The position numbers and the translations under genes are program-made. The notes beneath the pieces were generated by a model. It searched no databases. It saw nothing but the letters and a program-made list of their open reading frames with translations, and was not told where the DNA came from. From the NCBI GenBank assembly GCA_963770835.1, contig CAVYRH010000010.1:1-64000 (forward strand): a DNA stretch of 64,000 bases. The letters are read 5' to 3'. The number at the start of each line of letters is the position of its first letter. Position 1 is the first letter of the stretch. The stretch is from an uncultured Pseudomonadota bacterium. GTDB lineage: Bacteria; Oederibacteriota; Muellerivitia; Muellerivitales; Muellerivitaceae. Positions 45,587 through 59,300 of the stretch are shown in pieces.

Positions 45587-45706
45587 AGCCGCAGATGGAC
45601 ACAGATAAACACTGATAAGGAAAAGACAAATTAATGGGTAAAAATTCAAAAAAATTAAAAGTTCTTTGGTTGATGTATCTGTGTTTATCTGTGTTCATCT
45701 GTGGTT
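45587..45706. repeat. 30-bp imperfect inverted repeat of 10-bp units (ACACAGATRA), MITE-like
   Basis: AGCCGCAGATGGACACAGATAAACACTGAT ... ATCTGTGTTTATCTGTGTTCATCTGTGGTT (26/30 complementary). Confidence 0.85.
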
Positions 45707-46833
45707 CCCTCATGCCGTTGACTTTGTTTGCTTCCCAAGCAACCCCTGTTGCAGATGACGGCCAATCCCTCTTCGACAGCGCCTTGAAACTCTTCCAGGA
45801 AAAAAACTATAAGAAGGCCAAGGACGAACTGAACCAGCTGGTGGCCAAGTATCCGATGGGGAATTTCGTCCCCGCGGCCCGATTGCTTTTGGCCAATTTG
45901 CAGGAGGATTTCGCCGCTTCCACCGCCCAATTCAAGGAATTGGCTGGCGAATACAGCGACCGCCCGGAGGGAGCGGAAGCCCAGAAGGATTTGGGCGCAC
46001 GATATTACCTCGCGGATAAATATGACGATGCGGCCAATAGCTACAAAGAATACCTGGACAATTACCCCAAGAGCCCCGAAATACCGGAGGTTCGCTATTG
46101 GTACGCTTCCTCGCTTTTGGCTTTGGAGGATGACAAGGGCGCGCTGGAACAATACAAGAAAGTCCTCGACGGCGCCCAAGACAGTCCCTGGGCCCCCAAG
46201 GCATTGCTGGGGATGGGCAACTGTTACTTGAAAATGAAAAAGTTCGGGGACGCCCAGAACCAGTATTTGAGAATCCTGGACCAATACCACCTTTACGACG
46301 AGCTGAACCTGGTCTACCTCAAACTGGGCCAAACCTATGAGGCCGAGAAAAAGTGGAAGGAAGCCCATGCGGCCTACCAGAGCCTGATCCAGCAGTATCC
46401 CCAGGCATTCGAGGTTTCGGAAGCCAGGGACCGGCTGCAGGAACTGGAAAACCAGCGCGCGGATTTGCCCAAAGTGCCCGAAGCCCAGTCCCCGGAGCCC
46501 ACCGCGACCCCGGTTGCCGTGGCGGCTCAACCGACGGTGACCCCCATGCCGGAAGAGACCACGGAGGAATCCAGCTCAACGGCGGGGTCCATTTCCAAGC
46601 CCTTCCACGTGCAGGTAGGGGTTTATTCCAAGAAGTTCAACGTGGACAAGACCCGCAAGGCCATCCAGAAGGCGGGTTACACCTCCTTTGTGGTGACGGT
46701 CCAGCAGGAAGGCGTGCCCTATACCTTTTACAAGGTCCGGGTGGGGAACTTCGCCGACCGGGCCGAGGCGGAGAGGGTGGCCAAGGAACTGGCGCGCAAG
46801 GTGAAGGAAAAAGCCATCGTCGTCGAAGATTGA
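45634..46833 (+). CDS. Periplasmic TPR (CpoB/BamD-like) protein with C-terminal SPOR domain
   Basis: Signal peptide, TPR repeats 'YKEYLDNYPKSP', SPOR 'FHVQVGVY...YKVRVGNF'. Confidence 0.88.
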   Translation: MGKNSKKLKVLWLMYLCLSVFICGSLMPLTLFASQATPVADDGQSLFDSALKLFQEKNYKKAKDELNQLVAKYPMGNFVPAARLLLANLQEDFAASTAQFKELAGEYSDRPEGAEAQKDLGARYYLADKYDDAANSYKEYLDNYPKSPEIPEVRYWYASSLLALEDDKGALEQYKKVLDGAQDSPWAPKALLGMGNCYLKMKKFGDAQNQYLRILDQYHLYDELNLVYLKLGQTYEAEKKWKEAHAAYQSLIQQYPQAFEVSEARDRLQELENQRADLPKVPEAQSPEPTATPVAVAAQPTVTPMPEETTEESSSTAGSISKPFHVQVGVYSKKFNVDKTRKAIQKAGYTSFVVTVQQEGVPYTFYKVRVGNFADRAEAERVAKELARKVKEKAIVVED

Positions 46834-47300
46834 ACCACAGAGTACACGGAGTACACAGAGTTAAAGATTATGGGAAAACAATATGCGCCGATTCCGGAGG
46901 AAATTAACAAAATCACCGGGGAGATCATTGGGGCGGCTATGGCGGTTCACACTGAACTAGGTCCAGGATTGTTAGAAAGTGTCTACGAGATTTGTTTAAC
47001 TAAAGAACTCCAACTAAAAGGTTTAAGAGTAGAAAGACAACTTCCAGTCCCTGTTACGTATCGTGCTGAGCAACTTGAAGTCGGATTTAGAGTCGATCTT
47101 TTGGAGGAAGGCAAAGTGGTTGTCGAACTGAAAGCGGTTGAAAAAATATTACCAATTCACGAAGCTCAAGTTTTGACTTATTTAAAGCTGACGAATCAGC
47201 GGCTTGGACTTCTTTTGAATTTCAACGTCGTTTCGATGCAAGATGGAATCAAAAGAGTGGTTTTGTGATTTACTCTGTGAACTCTGTGTACTCTGTGGTT
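46833..47300 (+). mobile_element. GxxExxY cassette bounded by 29-bp inverted repeats of 9-bp units
   Basis: AACCACAGAGTACACGGAGTACACAGAGT ... ACTCTGTGAACTCTGTGTACTCTGTGGTT (27/29 complementary); AT-richer than its neighbours. Confidence 0.65.
46870..47268 (+). CDS. GxxExxY protein (PD-(D/E)XK nuclease superfamily)
   Basis: 'LGPGLLESVYE', 'FRVDLL...VELKAV', 'AQVLTYLK...GLLLNF'. Confidence 0.95.
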   Translation: MGKQYAPIPEEINKITGEIIGAAMAVHTELGPGLLESVYEICLTKELQLKGLRVERQLPVPVTYRAEQLEVGFRVDLLEEGKVVVELKAVEKILPIHEAQVLTYLKLTNQRLGLLLNFNVVSMQDGIKRVVL

Positions 47301-47316
47301 TAAGAGGTTCGGTGTA

Positions 47317-49944
47317 ATGGATGATCTGACGCCCATGATGAAGCAGTACCTGGACCTGAAGAGGATCCATAAAGATGAAATCCTCTTTTTCCGCCTGGGC
47401 GATTTCTACGAGATGTTCTTCGACGACGCCAAGACGGCCGCCCGCGTCCTCCACCTGACCTTGACCGCCCGGGCCGGGGGCAACAACCAGAAAGTCCCCA
47501 TGGCGGGCATCCCCTACCACGCGGCGGAAAACTACATTTCCAAGCTGGTCAAGAACGGCTATTCCATCGCCATCTGCGAGCAAGCCGAGGACCCGGCCAC
47601 CGCCAAGGGGCTGGTCAAACGCGAGATCGCCCGGGTCATCACTCCGGGCACCATCCTTTCCGCGGCCATGCTGGAGGAGAAAGCCAACAACTACCTAGCG
47701 GCCCTCGTCAGCTCCACCCAAAGCCTGGGGCTGGCCGTGGTGGACGTCACCACCGGCGAGTTCAAGGCCTGCGAACTGAGCGGCCCCGAGCGTTTTTCCA
47801 CCGCCGCCAACGAGCTTTCCAAGTTCAACCCCTCCGAAATCCTGATGCCCCTCACCCAGCCCACCGACGAGCCTTGGGCCCAGCTGTTGAGGTCGGCCAA
47901 CGGGGCCAAACGGTCCCACATGGAGGATTGGAAATTCTCCGCCGACGAGGGCAAGGAAGTCCTGCAGGAGCACTTCCAAGTGAAGTCCCTGGACGGCTTC
48001 GGGCTTTCGGGCCAGGACCAGGCGGTTCGGGCGGCCGGGGCAATTTTACAGTATCTCAAGGAAACCACCCACAGCGTGCTCTCCCACCTAGTCACTCTTT
48101 CCACTTTCCAGGTGGGGGAAGGCATGGTGCTGGACGCCACCACCCAGAGAAACTTGGAAATCATCAAACCCATGCGCGACGACGCCAAGGAAGGTACGCT
48201 TCTTTCGGTGCTGGACGAAACCGTAACTTCCATGGGGGGGCGCCTCCTGAGGCAATGGCTGGTGACGCCGCTGACTTCGGTGTCGCAAATCAAGCGCCGC
48301 CAGGACGCGGTGGAGGAACTTTTGTCCCGGAAAGACGACCGGGAGACCCTCCGGGATTTCTTCAGGGAAGTGTCGGACCTGGAGCGGCTCTCAGGCCGTA
48401 TCGGTTGCGGCACGGCCAATGCCCGGGATATGGTGGCGCTGCGGACCACCCTTGCCCTCCTTCCCAAAATCCACCATCTCCTTTCCGGCTTCAAGGCCCA
48501 GGCCATCAAGGAAAGGGTGGAAGTCTGGGACAACCTGAAGGAAGTCCACCACCTGCTGGAAAAGTCCATCCACGACGAACCGCCCCTGGCCCTCAAGGAA
48601 GGGGGCCTTATCAAGGCCAGTTATAACAAGGAATTGGACGAGCTCAAAAGCGCCTCGCTGGAAGGAAAGAGCTGGATCGCCCAACTGGAGGAAAAAGAAA
48701 AGGCCCGCACCGGCATCGGTTCCCTAAAGGTGCGTTACACCTCCGTCTTCGGCTATTACATCGAGGTCTCCAAGGCCAACCTGGACAAAGTACCCGCCGA
48801 CTACCACCGCAAACAGACGCTCGTGAACGCCGAGCGCTTCATCACGCCCGAACTCAAGGAGATGGAAGGGAAGGTCTTGGGCGCCCAGGACAAGGCCGAC
48901 CGGATGGAATACGAACTTTTCGACGGCATCCGAAACCAGGTGGGCAAGGAACTCTCGCGGCTCCAAAGGGTGGCCCGCACCATCGCTGAACTGGACGTTT
49001 TTTCCTGCATGGCCGCGGTGGCCGACCGGGGGCGCTATGTGCGGCCCGAGGTGGACGACTCCACCGGACTTTCCATCGTGGACGGGCGGCACCCGGTTTT
49101 GGACCGCATCCTCTCCTCCGACCAGTTCGTGCCCAACGACAGCCATTTGGGCGTGGAAGGAGTGGAGATCATCATCCTGACCGGCCCCAACATGGCAGGC
49201 AAGAGTACCTATATCCGGCAGGTGGCATTGTTGGCCCTCATGGCCCAGGTGGGTTTTTACGTGCCCGCCAAGGAAATGAAGGCGGGCATCGTGGACCGCA
49301 TCTTCTCCCGCGTGGGGGCCTCCGACGCCCTCACCCAGGGACAGAGCACCTTCATGGTGGAAATGGTGGAAACCGCCAATATCCTCAACCACGCCACGGC
49401 CAAAAGCCTCCTCATCCTGGATGAGGTTGGGCGGGGAACCTCCACCTTCGACGGGGTTTCCATCGCCTGGGCGGTGGTGGAATATATCGCCCAAAAGCTC
49501 AAGGCCCGCACCCTCTTCGCTACGCACTACCACGAATTGACCCGCCTATCAAACACCTTCCCGAACGTGAAGAACTTCAACATCGCGGTTCGTGAATGGA
49601 ACGAGCAGATCCTTTTCCTGCGCAAGATCGTGGAAGGCGGCACGGACAAAAGCTATGGCATCCAAGTGGCGCGCCTGGCGGGCGTGCCAAAGGAAGTGGT
49701 GGCCCGGGCAAAGAAAATATTGGCGGGCCTAGAAACCGGAACCTTCCTGGGTAAGACCGTCGAGGCCCAGCCTTCCCCCCAACCCGAAACGCCTGAAGAA
49801 GGAACCCTCCCCCAACTCTCCTTCTTCGGCACTGGCGCCAGCCATCCCATTTTGGAGGAGTTGAAGGGATTGGATGTGGACGGTCTGACTCCGAGGGACG
49901 CGTTGAATTTGTTGGGAGAGTGGAAGAAAAAGGTCGAAGAGTAA
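47317..49944 (+). CDS. mutS: DNA mismatch repair protein MutS
   Basis: 'TPMMKQY...GDFYEMF', 'TGPNMAGKST', 'STFMVEM', 'DEVGRGTST', 'SYGIQVA'. Confidence 0.98.
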   Translation: MDDLTPMMKQYLDLKRIHKDEILFFRLGDFYEMFFDDAKTAARVLHLTLTARAGGNNQKVPMAGIPYHAAENYISKLVKNGYSIAICEQAEDPATAKGLVKREIARVITPGTILSAAMLEEKANNYLAALVSSTQSLGLAVVDVTTGEFKACELSGPERFSTAANELSKFNPSEILMPLTQPTDEPWAQLLRSANGAKRSHMEDWKFSADEGKEVLQEHFQVKSLDGFGLSGQDQAVRAAGAILQYLKETTHSVLSHLVTLSTFQVGEGMVLDATTQRNLEIIKPMRDDAKEGTLLSVLDETVTSMGGRLLRQWLVTPLTSVSQIKRRQDAVEELLSRKDDRETLRDFFREVSDLERLSGRIGCGTANARDMVALRTTLALLPKIHHLLSGFKAQAIKERVEVWDNLKEVHHLLEKSIHDEPPLALKEGGLIKASYNKELDELKSASLEGKSWIAQLEEKEKARTGIGSLKVRYTSVFGYYIEVSKANLDKVPADYHRKQTLVNAERFITPELKEMEGKVLGAQDKADRMEYELFDGIRNQVGKELSRLQRVARTIAELDVFSCMAAVADRGRYVRPEVDDSTGLSIVDGRHPVLDRILSSDQFVPNDSHLGVEGVEIIILTGPNMAGKSTYIRQVALLALMAQVGFYVPAKEMKAGIVDRIFSRVGASDALTQGQSTFMVEMVETANILNHATAKSLLILDEVGRGTSTFDGVSIAWAVVEYIAQKLKARTLFATHYHELTRLSNTFPNVKNFNIAVREWNEQILFLRKIVEGGTDKSYGIQVARLAGVPKEVVARAKKILAGLETGTFLGKTVEAQPSPQPETPEEGTLPQLSFFGTGASHPILEELKGLDVDGLTPRDALNLLGEWKKKVEE

Positions 49945-52104
49945 TTATGAAAAAAATAATATTTTTTATGGTTGCGATTAGTTTTATTTCAAAAACTTTC
50001 CCTTCTGCCTTACCTGCCTTAATTATTACTGTCACTCCAACAGCTGATAAAGAAGTCGGGCTGTCACAAACAGATAAAAGTTGGTTATTGGTTACTAATA
50101 CGAATTTTTCAAAACGTGAAAATCAAACATCTACGGTTTTCAATAATTCAATTTGGACTATTGGCGGGCAAGATTCTAACAAGTCCCTCCTTCCTGAAGT
50201 TTGGAATTCTATTGATGGTTTGCAATGGCGTTTGGCTGTCGAAAATGTACCTTTTGGTGGTAGAGAAGGCCAAGCCGCTGTTAGTTTCCAAGGAAAATTA
50301 TGGATCATCGGTGGATTGACAAGCAGTGGGTTTTCTAACGACGTTTGGAATTCAAGCGATGGTTTAGTTTGGAAACAAATCGTTTCGAAAGCGCCATTTA
50401 CTCCTAGGGCTTTTCACCAAGTGACTATCTTCTCTGATCAAATTTTTGTTATAGGTGGGGAGACAAGGGAAGGGCCCACAAATGATATTTGGTGTTCAAC
50501 GGATGGGCTCAATTGGTCACAAAAGAGTACTGGTAAATTTCCAGCTCGTGAAAAATTCGCATGTGTAACTACTTATTATAAAAAGGCAAGGCATACAAAA
50601 CTTATTGCCCCCCCACAGCAACTTCGACCACCTGAAATGAAATATACTCTTTATGTTTTGGGCGGATTGACAACGAATGAAAAGATTTTAGGAGATATTT
50701 GGGCTTCTGAGGATGGCATAGAATGGAATGAAATTACAACGGAAGCTAATTTTGGTCCACGCTTTGATTTTTCTGCAATTTTTGATGGGTTATCAAATAT
50801 TTTTGTAATCGGTGGTACCGGATCTGATGGACTTCCCCAAAACGATGTTTGGTTTTCTCATTATGCGGATTCATGGTGCAAGCTCACTGATAAGGCCACT
50901 TTTAGCGCCCGAAGCGGTGCAAATTCCTTGTTTTATAAAAACGAAATGTGGTTATTGGGTGGGGGGACTGATGAAGCAAATAATGGCAATGTTTGGTACC
51001 GCAATGGAGGTGGTTTAGGGTCATGTGTTCAACCCACTGCAACATCCGACACATTAGTCTATCGGATTAAAATGCCAAGACCTCAGGAAATTAATTTTTT
51101 TGCTTCAGATAATGTTAATTCTTCTAAAGTGATTTTGGGTTCTATTGAAAAACAAAAAGACGGAAGTTTTATTGTTGATTATCCAGGTTCAGGTGTTAAG
51201 AGCGTTAAACAAGGTATAAATGATACGGACCATCTAGAATTGGTTTCCGAATTTAATAACGACGGAAAATTAATAAAACGGTATGAACGAGGTGTTACTT
51301 CCGAAGGCGAAAAATATTTTTACGGTTTTGTAGAGGAAAATTATGAAAATGGAAATTCGAAGTACAAAGGGTATTTGGTTCAACACCCATCCAATTTAAC
51401 AAACAATGTTCCCTCTCCGGCGGTTAAAGACGGAGAATGGGCGTGTTGGTATGAAAATGGTCAACTGGCGGTAAAGGGTATTTATACAAATGGGGTTCCC
51501 AATGGTATTTGGTCATATTGGTATCCGAATGGAAATTTAATGGACCGTTATGAACGAGAAATTGGAAAGAACATCTCAACCTTGGAACTTTGGTATGAAA
51601 ACGGCCAAGAATTGTTTAAGGGAAGTTTTGATGAAAATAACCATTATTTCCATTCAGTTAAAGACTCTTTTGATGTGTGGGATCAGATGGGGCATTTAAT
51701 GGCAAATGGCGTAAAAGACAAATATGATCAATATGTAAAATATGAATTGATCTGGCCTAATGGAAAAACAGCGATGGAACTTTCCAGCAACAATTCGGCA
51801 TGTGATGGTTTTGACGTTGCTTTTTATATGCCCGATGGACAATGGATTGTGAAAGGCAATCGAGAAATGGTCGGAGATGGAAATTCTTCCCATTGCGATG
51901 GAGATTACAGTGTCAACAAAGATATACAACTTGGCTCTGTCTTGGATATTCTGAAATCATGGATTGGAATTGAAAATTATTCAAAGCTTGATTCATCCGA
52001 AATCGACGGGGATGAAATCATTTTAAAGTTTCCTGATTGGATTGAAAGTTTTGATGCTGATAAACCCGATGAGTTAGTGGATTCACTTCAAGGATATATA
52101 AGTT

Positions 52105-53275
52105 GTAACCTCTGAAAAACTCCTTCGTCTAAATGCTGAAATATAATAGCAGCATTCCAGACGGAGGGATTCCATGCAAATCAGCTTCGGGATGTACGAG
52201 GACAAGAACCGGCGACTCAAAAAGACCATGCTAGAGGAAGTGGATAAGGTTCTGGACTTTCCGAAGATCGAGAAATTGCTGATGGAAATGTACCGGGGCA
52301 ACACGGGGAGACCTCCCATCCCGCCTTTGATCTTGTTTAAATGCCTTTTGCTGGAATCCTGGTACGGCCTGTCGGATGTGGAAGTAGTCCAAGAAATCCA
52401 CGACCGGCGCAGTTTTGAGCGGTTCGTGGGTGAAGGGGTCCGGGAGTACCACGTCGACGACACCACTTTGGTGAAGTTTCGGGAAAGACTTCGGGAAGCC
52501 GGTTTGATAGACCGGGTTTGGGGGGCAGTGCAACAGGGTTTGGACCGGAAGGGCCTTTTGGTCAAGAAAGGGGCCATTGTGGACTCCACCCTGGTGGAAG
52601 GAGCCTGTAAACCGGAATCCAAGGATCAAGAGGGAAAGCCGGTGGATGAAGATGTTCATTACACCTCCCGGCAAGGAAAAGCCGTGGATGGGATGAAGGT
52701 TCATGTGGGTCAGGACGAGAAAAGCGGCCTGATTCGAAAGATGGATCTAAGTCATATTGAGGAACACGATCACGAACATTTCAAAGACATGGTTCCTCGC
52801 GGGGTAGAACAGGCATTTGCTGACAAGGCTTACCGGTCGGCGCAACACGATGAATATTTGGAGGAACGAGGGATTCGGAATCGAGTGTTACATCGTGTTT
52901 GGCGGGGACAGAAGCTGACCCAGAGGCAATTAAAGCAAAACAAGGTTTGGGGCCGTGTGAGGTGCGGGATCGAGGCGACAATGAGTACCTTGAAGCGGTG
53001 GTGTTCGATGGGACGAATGAGGTACTACGGGATGGCCCGAAACAAGATTTGGGTGTTGATCTGTGGCATCGCATTTAATGGGAAAAGAGCCGTAAAGTTG
53101 GCGGCGGCCTGAGCTAAGGGGAGTTTTTTCAGAGGCAGATGACGCAAGAAGGGTCGAAAAAGGAGTTCTAGGAGTAAGTGCAACACCTTTGGAGAAACAA
53201 AAACATCTCCAAGCGGGGTTGAAAACCCTGGTGAGAAGAGTTTCAAACCAAAACAGGGAGTTTTTCAGAGGTTAC
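52105..53275 (+). mobile_element. IS5-family insertion sequence, 1171 bp
   Basis: 19-bp perfect TIR GTAACCTCTGAAAAACTCC; 5-bp target duplication AAGTT (52100-52104, 53276-53280). Confidence 0.93.
52174..53112 (+). CDS. IS5-family DDE transposase
   Basis: 'GRPPIP...WYGLSD', 'DDTTLVKFR', 'IVDST', 'GMKVH', 'ADKAY', 'RCGIE'. Confidence 0.93.
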   Translation: MQISFGMYEDKNRRLKKTMLEEVDKVLDFPKIEKLLMEMYRGNTGRPPIPPLILFKCLLLESWYGLSDVEVVQEIHDRRSFERFVGEGVREYHVDDTTLVKFRERLREAGLIDRVWGAVQQGLDRKGLLVKKGAIVDSTLVEGACKPESKDQEGKPVDEDVHYTSRQGKAVDGMKVHVGQDEKSGLIRKMDLSHIEEHDHEHFKDMVPRGVEQAFADKAYRSAQHDEYLEERGIRNRVLHRVWRGQKLTQRQLKQNKVWGRVRCGIEATMSTLKRWCSMGRMRYYGMARNKIWVLICGIAFNGKRAVKLAAA

Positions 53276-53666: not shown

Positions 53667-56600
53667 TTGCTGAGAAAAGACGACAAAATCCAAAAAAAGG
53701 TATTCCCCTACGAGTTCCCGGTGGAGCTCGAAACCCGGGCCCATGGCAACGTGGTGGCCCGCTGCCCGCTTTTACCCGGCTGCCAGGCCCAGGGCAAGAC
53801 CCCCAAGGAAGCTCTCGAACAGCTTAAGAATGCCCTGGACCTCTACTTCACCTCGGCCACGCCCGCCTTTTTTGAAAGCCTGGAACAATTCAAGGACATT
53901 CCCAACCTCTATGACCTGACGGAGTTCCGGGGAATCCTCTACGCCGCCACGGGGCAGGACTCGGTCCTCAAATCCTCAAGCGGCGCGCCGGGGTCCTGGA
54001 AAAAGGTTCCCGTCACCAGCAATCCCACCAAATTCTTCACCCCCGGGGCCAAGGGCAAGGAAGCCTCGGGGGATTACACCACGCAGGTTTACTGCCTCTG
54101 CTCCTACGCCCCGCCGGGCAAGGAAGCCATCCTTTTCGCCGGAACCAACCTGAACGGCGCGGTTTACCAGACGACGGACGGGGAAACCTGGCGCGACGCT
54201 TTTTCCACCGGGGAGGACCGCATCCACGCCCTTTGCGAGTTCAAGGGCCGCCTTTACGCGGGCACCAGCTCCCAGGGCAAGGTTTACGCCTATGACGGGG
54301 TCCAGTGGAACAATGTGGGGTCGCTTAGCGAAGTGGCGGTGACCTGCCTGGGGGTCTTCAACGGCCGACTCTACGCGGGCACCTATCCCAGCGGGCTCCT
54401 CTTCTCCACCCCCGACGGGTTGAACTGGGAGGAAGTGAGCGCCACGGGCCAGAACTTCATCCAGTGCCTCCAGGAATTCAACGGCGCCTTCTACGCCGGC
54501 ACCTCCAGCCCCAAGGGCGTCAAGGTCTTCCGTACGGAAAACGGCGTGGACTGGGCCCTGGCCTACGAAACCACCCGGGAGCTCAACCTCTACTGCATGG
54601 AAGTTTTCGAGAACGCCCTTTACGCCGGGACGGGCAACTCAGGGCGCATCCTCAAGACCCTGGACGGCGTGGATTGGTCCACCGCCTACGCGGGCGACCA
54701 GGAGGGGGTTCGGGCCTTCACGATCTTCGGGGACTACCTTTACGCCGGCACCGAGAACAACGGGGCCATCCTGCGCTCCACCTTCGACATGGCCCGCATG
54801 CCCGCGCTCTCGGACCTGAGGGTGGAAAAGCTCACTTCCAGCAGCGCGCTCATCACCTGGACCACGGACATCTCGGCCACCTCCGAGGTGCATTACGGCG
54901 CCAAGGGCCAGGGGACCGAACTGGCGAAGGTGGTGATGGACAAGAGCTTGGAGCTTTACCACCGCCTGCACCTGACCGACCTGGTATCCGAGACCGAGTA
55001 CGAGTTCAAGGTGGTGAGCGCCTACCGTACTTCCTCCCTCGCGGTCAGCGGCACCTCTTCCTTCCAAACCCCGGCGGTCCCGCCCCCGGCCATCACTTCC
55101 CCCAGCCACCCCCAACCGGGAAAGTGGGAAAAATCCAGCGACATCGAGATCCTGCTGCATCCAACCGTCCCCCTGGCGGGCTACCACTATCTTTTGAACC
55201 ACTACCCCGAAACCGTCCCGGCCCCGCCCGAGGCCTCCTTCACGCAGGATAAGCGCATCGCCTTCTCGGGGACGGCCCAGGGAACCTGGTATTTCCACGT
55301 GGTGGGCGAGGATGAGGCGGGCAACATCGGAAGCGAAGCCTCCCATTACAAAATTCTTTTGGATACCGAAGCCGCCCCGCCCCAGCGCCCGCAAAGCCCG
55401 ACCCACCCGGACCCGGAAAAATGGGTGGCCGACCCCACGCCCGTCCTCGCCTGGGAAGCGCCCAAGGACCTATCCGGCGTGAAGGGCTACTATGTCAAAG
55501 CCGACCACGAGCCCAACACGGTGCCCGGCCCGGGCACGGGAGAATTCACCCAGGAAACGCGCCTCACCCTGGGCCCCCTGGAGGACGGGCTTTGGTACGT
55601 CCACGTGTCCACCCTGGACGAGGCGGGGAACGCCGGCCAGGAAGCCGCCCATTACCCCCTGCGCATTGACACCAAAGCCCTGGCGCCGGCCCTTTCCTCG
55701 CCCAGCCATCCCCAGGGCGAACAGTGGTATTCCAATAAGAAGGTCGAAGTGGCCTTCCTCCCTCCCCACGACCTCTCGGGAATCGAAGGCTATTACTACT
55801 GCATCGACCACGAACCCATGACCCTCCCGGACCCGGATTCGGCCCTCTTTACCGACAAGCCCCAGGCGGTCTTCGAGGAAGTGGAGGACGGCCAATGGTT
55901 CGTCCACGCGCGCACCAAGGACAAGGCGGAAAACCTCTCGCCGCAGGCGGGCCACTTGAAGGTCTGCGTCGACACGCTGGTCTCGCCGCCGAAGGTTTCC
56001 TCACCCAGCCATCCGGTTGAGACAACCTTTGCGGGTTCGGCCGATTCACCACAGGGCGCCCCGGTTCCGTCCGGCCGCTGGTACCGCAACCGCCGGGTGG
56101 TCATCCAATGGGAGGACCCCTTCGAGCACTCGGGCATCGAGGGCTATTACTACAACATCGACCGCAAGGCCGACACGGTGCCCAACGCAGAAAACTCACT
56201 TTTCACCCGCGAGCGCAGCGTTTCCTTCGAGCTCACCGACGACGGCCTGTGGTATTTCCACATCACCACCAAGGACAAGGCGGGCAACGTGGATTGGAAG
56301 GCCGTCCACTACCCCCTGCGCGTGGATACGGTCGCGGCCAGGCCCTTTCTCTCCTCCCCCAGCCATCCGGACCAGGAGCAGTGGTATTCAACCCCCAAGG
56401 CCGTCTTCAAGCTCGCGGCGCCGGACGATCTTTCGGGCATCACGGGCTTCTATTACAACTTCTCCGAGGACCCGAAAGCCGCGCCCGATCCCAAGACCTC
56501 CACCTTCACCGCCCAAAACGAAATCACCCTGGACATCCCCCGTGACGGGGTCCACACCCTCTCCGTCATCTGCCAGGACGCGGCAGGCAACACCTCCAAG

Positions 56601-59300
56601 GAAACAGCCCTCTTCAAGGTGCGCCTGGACACCACGGTGGAAACCCCCATAGTGGTTTCGCCCAGCCACCCGAACCCGCAAGCCTGGTACGCCTCGCGCC
56701 GCGTGGAACTGACCTGGAAGGATCCGGCGGACCTCTCCGGCATCGACGGCTATTACTACCTCTTAAACGCCGAGGAACATTGGAAGGCGGAATTAAAGGA
56801 AATGGCCTGGACGACCGCCCGGGGCACGGTTTTGACGCTTCCCGAGGACGGGATCTGGTTTTTCCACCTTCTGGCCAAGGACCACGCCGGCAACACCGGC
56901 GCCTGCGCGGACTTCAAGATCCAAGTGGATTCCAAGGCCGTGGCCCCGGAAGTGAAAAGCCCCACCCATCCCCCCCGGCAATGGGTCAAACTCTCCACGC
57001 CCAAATTCATGTGGGACGCGCCCAGCGAATCCGCCGGGGTGGAAGGCTACTACGTAGCCTTGGACAGCAAGCCCCACACCATCCCCGGGCCGGGCAACGG
57101 CAAGTGGATCACCGAAACTTCCTTAACCGCCCCCTCCTTGAAAGACGGCAAGTGGTTCTTCCACGTCACCACCAAGGACCTGGTGGGGAACCTCAGCAAG
57201 GAAGCGGCCCATTACCCCGTCTTGATCGACACCCAGCCCCCGAAGTCCCAGGTGAAGCCCATGGCCCCGCTCCTGGACAAGACCCAGGTTTACGTGGAAT
57301 GGAGCGCCTCCGACCCGAACGCCGAAATCGCCGGGTACGACGTGCAGGTGAAGACCGACAACGGGCCCTGGGGCGACTGGCTTTCCAACACCTCCGCCAC
57401 CTCGGGGGTTTTCCCCGGGGCCGACGGCAAGCGTTACGCCTTCCGCGTGAGGGCCAAGGACAGCGCGGACAACGTGGAAAATTACCCCGAGGGGGAGATG
57501 GCCTACACCACGGTGGATATCGGGCCGCCGCCTTCCGTGAACCAGCTCAAGGCGACCCCCAAGGCGCTCGGGGACATCGAGCTCAAGTGGAACCCGGTGG
57601 AAGACCGGGTCTCGGGCACGGACTATTACCGCGTCTACCGCTGGCTGGAGAACGAACCGAAGGCCAAGATCTCCGCCGACGGAGAAGTGAAAAAGACGGA
57701 ATTCCTCGACAAGGGCGCGGGGCTCAAGGAAAACACGGTTTATTACTATTGCGTCCAGGCCGTGGACAAGATGGGCAACGAACAGCACGAGGGAAACACC
57801 ACCGCCGCCGCCCTCTCGGACCACGGCGTGGGCACGCCGGTGGTCACCAGCCCCACCCATTCCAGCGACGACTGGAGCTCGAGGAACGCGGCCATTCTCA
57901 CCTGGGACGCCCCGGCGGATTCCACCGGCATCGCCGGCTACTATTACCTTTTGGACCAAAGCCCCAATTCCCGGCCCACGCCGGAAAACGGCACCTTCGT
58001 GGACAACCGCCGGGTGGAACTCTCCGGGCTCGAAAGCGGCATCTGGTATTTCCACCTGACCGCCAAGGACCGGGCGGAAAACTTGAGCGAGCCCGCGGCC
58101 CATTACCGCCTGAGGATCGACGTTTCCAGGCCCGCCGCGCCCCAGGTCACCTCCCCCAGCCACCCCGATTCCCAAAGGTGGTACGACTCGGCCAAGCCCG
58201 AGTTCCACCTGTCGCCGGCCGCCAAGCTCTCGGGCGTGGAGGCCTTCTATTACGTTTTCGACCGCAACCCCGACACCGTCCCGGTCCCCAACGAGGCGCT
58301 GCGCACCAACGAGGAGTCGGTGGCTTTGAAGGCCTCCGATCCCGGCGCCTGGTTCTTCCACGCGGTAGTGAAGGATAGGGCGGGCAATTTTTCCGAGCCC
58401 ACCCACTTCACGGTTTTGATCGCCGCCGGGGAAATGCCCCCGCCGGTGCTCTCCAGCCCCAGCCATCCCATGGAAGACGAGTGGGTGAGCAACCACGACC
58501 CCCTCTTCACCTGGGAGGACCGCCACGACGGCAGCTTTAAGCCCGCGGGCTATGTCTACAAGTTGAGCCCCAACCCGGTGGAAACCCTGACCTCTGAAGA
58601 TAACTTCACCGCCGAAAAATCCGTACAACTCAAGGAAGTGGGCGACGGGGTTTGGTATTTCCACATCGCGGCGGTCGGGAAGAAGGGGACCCCCGGCCCC
58701 TTGAGTTCCCGCCGGAAGCTGGCCATCCAGCGACTGGGCAAGGTTTACGGCTCTTTCGTCCGTAAGGACGGGTTGACCGCGATTTCCGGGACCAAGGTGG
58801 AAATGGCCAAGGGGGACAAGGTGGTGGCCACGGCTGTGACCGACTCCAAGGGCTTTTTCAATTTCTCCAGCCTGCCCGAGGGCCGCTATGAGGTGCGGCT
58901 CCATAGCGACCAGTACCCGGTTTTGCGCCTTAAGGATATCGCCATCACCCAGGAAGAAGGCCTGGCGGGGGTTACCTTCACGGAGGACATGGGCCTCTTC
59001 CCGGCGCCCCCCGTGTCCGGGCCACTGCGCTTTTACTATTTCCTGAAGGAAGACTGCAACGTGACGCTGGAGGTTTTCGACTCCACCGGCGCCCTGACGG
59101 GCAAGGTGGAGGAAAAGCGGGAAGGCGGGGCCTACGCGGTGACCATCTGGGACGCGGCGGGCAAGGCGGAAGGGGAGTACCTCTACAAGCTTTCGGCCAA
59201 GAGCATTACCAAGAACACCATGTCGCGGTTCGCGGTGAAGAAGTTCCGCATCCAGAAGAGTTCCAAAGAAGCTGCCCCCCAGCCCCAGCCGGTTTCTTAA
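53667..59300 (+). CDS. 1877-aa multidomain protein: HicB-like N-terminus, beta-propeller, FN3, ten about-100-aa 'SP(S/T)H' Ig-like repeats, carboxypeptidase-regulatory-like and FlgD-like C-terminal domains
   Basis: 'VARCPLLPGCQAQGKTPKEALEQLKNAL'; 'FxGxLYAGT' blades; repeated 'SPSHP...W...SGIxGYYY...WYFH...DxAGN'; strong GC3 coding bias. Confidence 0.88.
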   Translation: MLRKDDKIQKKVFPYEFPVELETRAHGNVVARCPLLPGCQAQGKTPKEALEQLKNALDLYFTSATPAFFESLEQFKDIPNLYDLTEFRGILYAATGQDSVLKSSSGAPGSWKKVPVTSNPTKFFTPGAKGKEASGDYTTQVYCLCSYAPPGKEAILFAGTNLNGAVYQTTDGETWRDAFSTGEDRIHALCEFKGRLYAGTSSQGKVYAYDGVQWNNVGSLSEVAVTCLGVFNGRLYAGTYPSGLLFSTPDGLNWEEVSATGQNFIQCLQEFNGAFYAGTSSPKGVKVFRTENGVDWALAYETTRELNLYCMEVFENALYAGTGNSGRILKTLDGVDWSTAYAGDQEGVRAFTIFGDYLYAGTENNGAILRSTFDMARMPALSDLRVEKLTSSSALITWTTDISATSEVHYGAKGQGTELAKVVMDKSLELYHRLHLTDLVSETEYEFKVVSAYRTSSLAVSGTSSFQTPAVPPPAITSPSHPQPGKWEKSSDIEILLHPTVPLAGYHYLLNHYPETVPAPPEASFTQDKRIAFSGTAQGTWYFHVVGEDEAGNIGSEASHYKILLDTEAAPPQRPQSPTHPDPEKWVADPTPVLAWEAPKDLSGVKGYYVKADHEPNTVPGPGTGEFTQETRLTLGPLEDGLWYVHVSTLDEAGNAGQEAAHYPLRIDTKALAPALSSPSHPQGEQWYSNKKVEVAFLPPHDLSGIEGYYYCIDHEPMTLPDPDSALFTDKPQAVFEEVEDGQWFVHARTKDKAENLSPQAGHLKVCVDTLVSPPKVSSPSHPVETTFAGSADSPQGAPVPSGRWYRNRRVVIQWEDPFEHSGIEGYYYNIDRKADTVPNAENSLFTRERSVSFELTDDGLWYFHITTKDKAGNVDWKAVHYPLRVDTVAARPFLSSPSHPDQEQWYSTPKAVFKLAAPDDLSGITGFYYNFSEDPKAAPDPKTSTFTAQNEITLDIPRDGVHTLSVICQDAAGNTSKETALFKVRLDTTVETPIVVSPSHPNPQAWYASRRVELTWKDPADLSGIDGYYYLLNAEEHWKAELKEMAWTTARGTVLTLPEDGIWFFHLLAKDHAGNTGACADFKIQVDSKAVAPEVKSPTHPPRQWVKLSTPKFMWDAPSESAGVEGYYVALDSKPHTIPGPGNGKWITETSLTAPSLKDGKWFFHVTTKDLVGNLSKEAAHYPVLIDTQPPKSQVKPMAPLLDKTQVYVEWSASDPNAEIAGYDVQVKTDNGPWGDWLSNTSATSGVFPGADGKRYAFRVRAKDSADNVENYPEGEMAYTTVDIGPPPSVNQLKATPKALGDIELKWNPVEDRVSGTDYYRVYRWLENEPKAKISADGEVKKTEFLDKGAGLKENTVYYYCVQAVDKMGNEQHEGNTTAAALSDHGVGTPVVTSPTHSSDDWSSRNAAILTWDAPADSTGIAGYYYLLDQSPNSRPTPENGTFVDNRRVELSGLESGIWYFHLTAKDRAENLSEPAAHYRLRIDVSRPAAPQVTSPSHPDSQRWYDSAKPEFHLSPAAKLSGVEAFYYVFDRNPDTVPVPNEALRTNEESVALKASDPGAWFFHAVVKDRAGNFSEPTHFTVLIAAGEMPPPVLSSPSHPMEDEWVSNHDPLFTWEDRHDGSFKPAGYVYKLSPNPVETLTSEDNFTAEKSVQLKEVGDGVWYFHIAAVGKKGTPGPLSSRRKLAIQRLGKVYGSFVRKDGLTAISGTKVEMAKGDKVVATAVTDSKGFFNFSSLPEGRYEVRLHSDQYPVLRLKDIAITQEEGLAGVTFTEDMGLFPAPPVSGPLRFYYFLKEDCNVTLEVFDSTGALTGKVEEKREGGAYAVTIWDAAGKAEGEYLYKLSAKSITKNTMSRFAVKKFRIQKSSKEAAPQPQPVS

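Follow-up and report, generated by a model that had tools for sequence, protein, structure and literature searches.

What brings a small nuclease-family gene, enclosed by inverted repeats and with no transposase beside it, into the gap between two host genes? The question is raised by a locus in a 64,000-nt stretch of DNA (the window; positions 1 to 64,000 of contig CAVYRH010000010.1, assembly GCA_963770835.1) from an uncultured bacterium of the GTDB lineage Oederibacteriota. There, a GxxExxY gene stands between a TPR-SPOR gene and mutS, and an earlier note on this DNA had proposed a transposase-free mobile cassette. We describe the anatomy of this cassette, the association of GxxExxY genes with arrays of short words, the pairing of arms that carry the same word, the copying of gene-less units, the patchy presence of the cassette at orthologous junctions, and the intact motifs and purifying selection of the protein. 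The observation is real and, across the genomes compared, general; the mobility of the gene-less units rests on homologous copies, and self-mobility of the cassette and activity of its protein are predictions. We see about an even chance that a family of intergenic hairpins has its gene-bearing form in this cassette, and that the nuclease would bind the word in both arms and cut near the outer ends and host repair would copy the units.

GxxExxY proteins form a large family whose function is given as unknown, with multiple transfers, in a 2012 superfamily survey (PMC3424549). The arrays described below place a candidate DNA target beside the gene of each member. If the protein cuts, RAYT/REPIN and Ssn/NTS would be joined by a third, independent system of nuclease plus repeat; the family would offer a natural collection of word-specific nucleases of very small size, and the intergenic hairpins that occur by the dozen per genome in several phyla would be accounted for. 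If it also mobilises DNA, it would provide a route of movement without a transposase.

The cassette between the SPOR gene and mutS

The cassette and its two neighbours comprise the following features.

46830 to 46864, plus strand: left arm, with outer TTGAAC followed by CACAGAGTA, CACGGAGTA and CACAGAGTT at 46836 to 46862
46870 to 47268, plus strand: GxxExxY gene, 132 aa, identified by TIGR04256, PF13366, invariant columns, structure model and fold matches
47269 to 47309, minus strand: right arm, three 9-nt units plus outer end consensus, with a probable outer limit
45634 to 46833, plus strand: upstream neighbour, TPR-SPOR protein (CpoB/YbgF-like), a host gene outside the element
47317 to 49944, plus strand: downstream neighbour, a host gene that we take to be mutS, the name given by the earlier note

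Both arms are 35 nt long (46830–46864 and 47269–47303), are 89% complementary and carry three 9-nt units with the word CACRGAG; the right-arm units at 47271–47297 are the mirror image of those in the left arm. The outer TTGAAC of the left arm overlaps the stop codon of the SPOR gene (46831–46833). The earlier note had drawn a 468-bp unit (46833–47300) with 29-bp inverted repeats of three 9-bp units, starting in that stop codon and ending 16 nt short of the mutS ATG at 47317, and these placements agree with ours. In the paired arms of the genome to which the window belongs (G000), a weak end consensus extends about 12 nt past the units. Judged by this consensus, the right end of the cassette probably reaches about 47309 and takes in AAGAGG, the ribosome-binding site of mutS at 47302–47307, 9 nt upstream of the start. 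In the outer flanks of 122 paired arms of the genome, TT, which is the commonest letter pair, is favoured at −6/−5 and A at −14 to −11. A target duplication was not detected, as the earlier note had already remarked: the longest direct repeat across the flanks of 61 pairs was 4.51 versus 4.51 after shuffling, in a test that is blind to old copies and to duplications of 2–3 nt. CACRGAG-nn-CACRGAG arms occur 61 times in the genome versus 0.2 expected from base composition, which is far beyond chance.

The guanine-plus-cytosine (GC) content of the cassette gene is 0.416, compared with 0.60 for mutS and 0.55–0.60 for the neighbours. Low GC was considered as a mark of recent arrival and discarded: the gene is lower in GC than its flanks at 72/72 kin loci, hence AT-richness is a trait of the GxxExxY family and no sign that this cassette arrived recently.

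The single open reading frame (ORF) of the unit matched TIGR04256 with 148.9 bits (cut-off 35; model positions 2–116 of 116) and PF13366, its only Pfam match, with 146.6 (cut-off 22), which bears out the earlier description of a GxxExxY gene. Pfam and TIGRFAM-type scans of this ORF matched no transposase family. The catalytic set E36, D76, E86-x-K88 and H97-x-x-Q100-x-x-x-Y104 is intact, the last part containing a QxxxY-type motif. An alignment of 60 close homologues, chosen by similarity and excluding copies with stops, has H27, G31, G33, E36, Y39, D76, E86, K88, H97 and Q100 invariant in 60/60 sequences and Y104 nearly so. The C19 paralogue has ELR instead of ELK. A structure model of the window protein reached a predicted local distance difference test (pLDDT) score of 91. 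Its top Foldseek rows were Cas4 Pcal_0546 (E 9e-3), lambda exonuclease and SSO0001, with no match at E ≤ 0.001; the VIA Z to SSO0001 was 7.4 and the best VIA Z 7.8, with restriction-like folds level with Cas4-like ones, and a search of PDB by sequence gave a best E of 0.07. The protein is predicted to have a Cas4/RecB-like PD-(D/E)XK fold, with middling structural scores. In ten kin pairs, nonsynonymous divergence (dN) was 0.05–0.27 and synonymous divergence (dS) at or near saturation, indicating purifying selection. From its residues and its mode of evolution, the window protein looks like an active, selected nuclease.

Word arrays, hairpins and their genes

Arms were scored as the best inverted match between the 250 nt on either side of a gene, after removal of three loci whose flanks were short. 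The cut-off of 30 was chosen after the maximum of 29 had been seen among 204 same-geometry shifted control windows. Scores of at least 30 were obtained at 29/31 kin loci, the window included, and at 60/78 distant loci in many phyla, taken from the best 80 of the 114 matches listed, versus 0/204 control windows. At a stricter cut-off of 36, the counts were 75/109 loci versus 0/204 controls and 1/398 random ORFs of the genome. Repeats of the kind which the earlier note had suggested looking for in the flanks of GxxExxY genes are thus present, and on these comparisons the link between gene and arms is general across phyla.

The units are 8–10 nt long and carry related words, among them CACAGAG, CACCAAG, CGCGAAG, CACAGAT and CATAAAA. 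Three full-length GxxExxY genes and one stump exist in the genome, all with arms and each with its own word; those of the other two full-length genes are CACRGAT and CGCCGA. The stump (30-odd codons, with a CACCAAG arm) is on C4; in four relatives, the same junction holds the whole gene. Words read by eye from printed arms were compared with protein trees. In a tree of the 59 intact of 72 loci, a clade of 21 rows (support 96/89) holds the AT-ending words with one CGCCGA exception, and in an 18-row subset of our choosing the CACCAAG-type and CACAGAG-type proteins split at 96/94. Mismatches between arms fell on the spacer, unit positions 8–9, in 35/44 cases (14 period-9 pairs), which suits binding sites rather than a plain stem. 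Wherever the third word base was scored as C, residue 129 is Arg (99/99 loci); where it was scored as T, the residue is Thr or Ser at 11/14 loci. Columns tied to the last word base mark a single clade. As a possible reader of the third word base, R129 is a lead only. Among 41 genomes, arrays of two tested words with at least five hits were found in 22/26 genomes with the gene versus 1/15 without it, a comparison in which kin are not independent and both traits follow two families.

The genome contains 62 arm pairs in five word classes, 61 of them gene-less. The two arms carry the same word in 59/62 pairs versus 15 on shuffling, and none of the 62 lies wholly within a crude ORF call. By equally crude gene calls, the genes on the two sides are co-oriented for 48 pairs (background 64%), and in 38 of these 48 a stop codon is no more than 35 nt away. 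A Shine-Dalgarno-like motif follows 26 of these 48 hairpins, compared with 4 at the mirror position upstream; it may have been brought by the element or kept by the host. Most gene-less interiors are short, AT-rich and mutually unrelated. Three CACCAAG hairpins that occupy unrelated sites, and that lie in both orientations to transcription, have a common interior (best score 65 versus 25 in controls). In another genome (G038), nine gene-less units of 309–335 bp have interiors that are 61–76% alike, again in both orientations and with unrelated flanks; their invariance ends 1–3 nt beyond the arrays, with weak likeness for about 10 nt further. Since homologous interiors occur at unrelated sites and in both orientations, gene-less units were copied as DNA, and their mobility is shown by these homologous copies. 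No relic of GxxExxY turned up in gene-less hairpins: when the genome was searched with a profile, only the three genes and the stump (the latter at E 30) were returned, and 18 longer gene-less units of G038 and G032 held none. Of the autonomous/non-autonomous pair of a mobile class suggested in the earlier note, the association of the two forms and the copying of the gene-less one stand, and present self-movement of the gene-bearing form is a conjecture.

The longer gene-less units form families of 306–500 bp with CACCAAG arms in G038 (L190–L200) and G032 (L201–L207). Their interiors are conserved and self-complementary and contain an inner CACCAAG hairpin; three that were tested had no Rfam match. 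Small GC hairpins lie within or between arm units, the array being preserved, at L189 (G000:C4 405.0–405.2 kb), L014 and L210–L212, and at L014 such a mini-hairpin forms every spacer in both arms.

A further hairpin lies upstream in the window, where the earlier note had seen an empty relative of the cassette at 45587–45706.

45589 to 45704, no strand assigned: gene-less hairpin, arms of 29 nt, 90% complementary, word CRCRGAT

The hairpin is real and gene-less, but it belongs to another word class, that of the C19 GxxExxY paralogue and not of the window gene, and it overlaps the start of the SPOR gene: its interior and right arm are part of the opening codons of the TPR-SPOR frame. By our reading, the right arm (hairpin region 45589–45712) encodes YLCLSVFICG, within an apparent signal peptide. 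A SPOR start overlapped by a hairpin is also present in G005 and G021 and, in decayed form, in G011, and other kin have plain short leaders. The hairpin seems to provide the hydrophobic leader of the SPOR gene, and repeat DNA may in this way have been recruited as a signal peptide. An Rfam search of the window gave only weak matches to microRNA precursors, far below gathering scores, at the 45589 hairpin and one spot in mutS.

Junction history and the explanations compared

The SPOR-mutS junction was readable in 22 genomes. It holds a full cassette in two (G000 and G015), a Sel1-like gene (named by eye) in five, a gene-less hairpin with another word in five, nested hairpins in one, a single arm in one, a hairpin of a 7-nt type (recognised by eye) in six and nothing in two. 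Judged by these contents, the junction is an insertion hot spot. The five closest relatives have the Sel1-like repeat gene (L032–L035, L176) in the SPOR-mutS gap, and the junction of G000 lacks it.

In a MutS tree, G000 nests with support values of 100 and 97 among these five cassette-free genomes, which favours a separate gain of the cassette. That G000 instead kept an old vertical insertion, lost or replaced in most relatives, falls a little short of even probability in our estimate; it concerns this locus only and is compatible with the other explanations. G015, of another genus, has a cassette with the same word at the same junction, the two proteins are sisters in the best tree with weak support, and CACAGAG-like relics occur there in G019, G023 and G024; yet the G000 protein is 63% identical to that of G015 and 66–67% identical to proteins at other junctions. 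Vertical conservation, which the earlier note had named as the finding that would speak against its proposal, is accordingly seen in part, and the cassette occupies only 2 of the 22 junctions.

Elsewhere, 13 junctions are filled in at least two genomes by our reading, and 26 loci have no shared-junction assignment. Proteins that are 92% (L149/L151), 80% (L022/L030) and 77% identical stand at different junctions, one junction holds two protein lineages with different words, and in G000 some junctions at which kin have cassettes are tight, with no space for a relic. Together these observations indicate that movement has happened, slowly. The 92% pair has a dS of about 2.5; silent sites are thus near saturation even in the closest pair that occupies different sites, and the GxxExxY copies of the genome are about 45% identical to each other. 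The mobile cassette of the earlier note is thus supported by presence and absence at orthologous junctions and not by present-day movement of the gene-bearing form by itself. In three sequencing runs of two studies, the cassette was found in place and unchanged across its junctions; one contig from a run had a right arm short of one 9-nt unit, and no RNA run was listed as carrying the locus. Joints that skip the gene were considered as excision products and rejected: they are short-sided, and three traced middle stretches match other hairpins of the genome.

The explanation to which we give about an even chance would work as follows. The repeated 7-base word in the two arms is the likely binding site of the nuclease, and cleavage likely occurs close to the outer ends; the substrate, guessed from the Cas4/RecB-like fold, could be a single strand, a hairpin or cruciform DNA. 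Host repair would then copy word-bounded units to new gene junctions. The enzyme would act mostly in trans on gene-less units, and the gene-bearing form would move rarely, on a genus-to-family time scale, and then decay in place, as RAYT genes do relative to REPINs, through a frameshift, a stump, a gene-less hairpin and a single arm to loss. A wider claim, which we hold to be possible but doubtful, is that these elements are a widespread class of transposase-free bacterial selfish DNA: a Cas4/RecB-like nuclease of 130 residues would read a 7-base word, a different one in each clade, by a residue-to-base code (R129 for the third base), cause its own gene and dozens of gene-less hairpins to be copied into gene junctions, and bring a ribosome-binding site that keeps operons intact.

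Several points weigh against this explanation. Both four-helix-bundle genes of the genome have the same layout of a gene in inverted arrays, with 7-nt units, so that the layout alone is no proof that the enclosed protein is the mover. We know of no way in which a hydrolytic PD-(D/E)XK enzyme would join strands. The proteins of G000 and G015 are sisters in the best tree (support 70/74, not starred), and together with the 13 shared junctions this makes long persistence at a site real. A recent copy of a gene-bearing cassette was not found among the genome copies and kin pairs. An excised form, circular DNA having been one of the checks proposed in the earlier note, was not seen in the low-depth contigs of four DNA runs. 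The agreement of words and proteins in trees could come from linkage alone. The R129 signal comes from two lineages, a third keeps Arg and five rows are unscorable, so that it amounts to 2/3 independent changes and is not significant. Finally, G003 (84% complete) and G007 (80% complete) contain many word arrays, and an intact matching gene was not found in them.

A domesticated, Ssn-like partner is an unlikely explanation that we nevertheless take seriously. Here, the nuclease would recognise the word and serve the cell or protect the repeats, by cutting single-stranded DNA that enters the cell or by resolving hairpins; the hairpins would owe their spread to other means. Strong purifying selection without recent copies and the long persistence of the gene at its sites are consistent with it, and the NTS-ssnA-NTS arrangement, with cutting of single-stranded DNA and modulated transformation, provides a precedent (PMC11893778). 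Frequent decay speaks against it, with 13/72 kin loci failing the intactness rule, as does the spread of the gene over dozens of different junctions and its absence from 15/41 genomes; moreover, a host function needs no 1–6 word-specific paralogues per genome. Quite unlikely in our view is that the small genes are passengers, cargo linked to arms that another enzyme or a host process moves. An unrelated four-helix-bundle gene does occur in the same type of array, including at a junction that holds GxxExxY in a relative, and linkage by itself would explain the tree-word agreement. Yet the exclusivity of the genes is unlike that of cargo, the longer gene-less units examined hold no GxxExxY relic, each gene family has its own unit length (8–10 nt in GxxExxY arrays, 7 nt in those of the bundle genes), and the catalytic residues do not vary across the aligned homologues. 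Y1 transposases were examined as movers of the hairpins and set aside, the words being absent near all 11 Y1 loci of the genome.

The earlier note had also raised an RNA stem that loops the cassette out of the operon transcript like an intervening sequence. RNA folding does predict pairing of the arms (z −4.6), as it would for any inverted repeat, and the position of most pairs between co-oriented genes and close behind stop codons would suit such a process. However, G:U pairs on the sense strand were not in significant excess (97 versus 81, p = 0.26; 106 arm pairs), copies of one gene-less unit stand in both orientations to transcription, and the copying of DNA would be left unexplained. We consider this possibility very improbable.

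Related systems and neighbouring features

In terms of known systems, the cassette is best read as a pairing of nuclease and repeats that resembles REPIN/RAYT or Ssn but has an unrelated nuclease at its core, and by enzyme and repeat structure it belongs to neither. Work on REPIN/RAYT (REPtrons, and TIRtrons with TIRYT; PMC3116915, PMC3733652) describes inverted doublets that contain no gene and lie in extragenic space, an enzyme gene that is present once, does not duplicate and has a repeat class of its own on both sides, and multiple distinct gene-repeat pairs in one genome, all of which resemble the present case. The enzymes differ, RAYT being an HUH/Y1 tyrosine transposase and ours a 132-aa PD-(D/E)XK protein, and so do the repeats, palindromes tagged with GTAG/CGTC in REPINs and a tandem non-palindromic 7-nt word here; an excision intermediate was not seen in the low-depth contigs of the four DNA runs. 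The Ssn family with its NTS/SRM repeats shares a small single-domain nuclease between inverted copies of a dispersed repeat and enzyme-repeat pairs across the family and across taxa (Chenal et al. 2025, PMC11893778). Ssn is a GIY-YIG enzyme, and the window protein has no GIY-YIG domain. According to the same source, each SRM is itself a hairpin and activity was demonstrated for Ssn (PMC11893778); in contrast, the hairpin forms here only between the two arms and the activity of GxxExxY is predicted.

By sequence the window protein is a plain member of GxxExxY/PDDEXK_3 (TIGR04256, PF13366). With Cas4, lambda exonuclease and RecB-type nucleases it shares the best Foldseek rows and the QxxxY-type motif, but its scores are middling and tied with restriction-like folds. 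Cas4 has a four-cysteine Fe-S set; the single invariant cysteine of the GxxExxY protein means that it has none. No CRISPR context was found in the ORFs listed around the gene, whose neighbours are a miaB-like gene, TPR-SPOR and mutS. Insertion sequences (IS) with DDE transposases and the miniature elements (MITE) derived from them likewise have terminal inverted repeats and full and gene-less forms, but the present elements have no transposase match, no target duplication, fuzzy ends and no recent identical copies. Searches of the literature, which left out most subscription papers and supplements, gave no description of a link between GxxExxY and word arrays or gene-less hairpins; one paper names GxxExxY only as a domain call, and the word is not present in the accessible part of PMC3184786.

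The four-helix-bundle genes (TIGR02436) are likewise small, lie within inverted tandem arrays and occur at the same types of junction; they differ in their unrelated protein and 7-nt units. This family has been linked to intervening sequences in 23S rRNA, and we know of no catalytic role for it. The two genes lie at 506.5 kb of G000:C4 (L227) and 121.6 kb of G000:C3 (L228), a gene-less version of the 7-nt array is present at 161.8 kb of C4, and there are junctions that hold either a 7-nt hairpin or a GxxExxY cassette, depending on the genome.

At another locus (L020, G001:C15), a perfect 106-nt inverted repeat surrounds a GxxExxY gene up to the contig end; either the duplication in inverted orientation is recent or the assembly is at fault. 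Nine matches to Y1 (IS200-like) transposases (L229–L237) fall into two sets with identical scores, with a short inverted repeat of 16–17 nt around the gene; these Y1 elements were probably active recently. Within the window, an IS5-family transposase (52174–53112; NF033581, 192.9 bits) lies directly behind a Kelch/MORN-repeat gene (49947–52115). An ORF of 1877 aa at 53667–59300 combines, as recognised by eye, an N-terminal HicB-like stretch with a propeller-like region and numerous fibronectin/Ig-like repeats.
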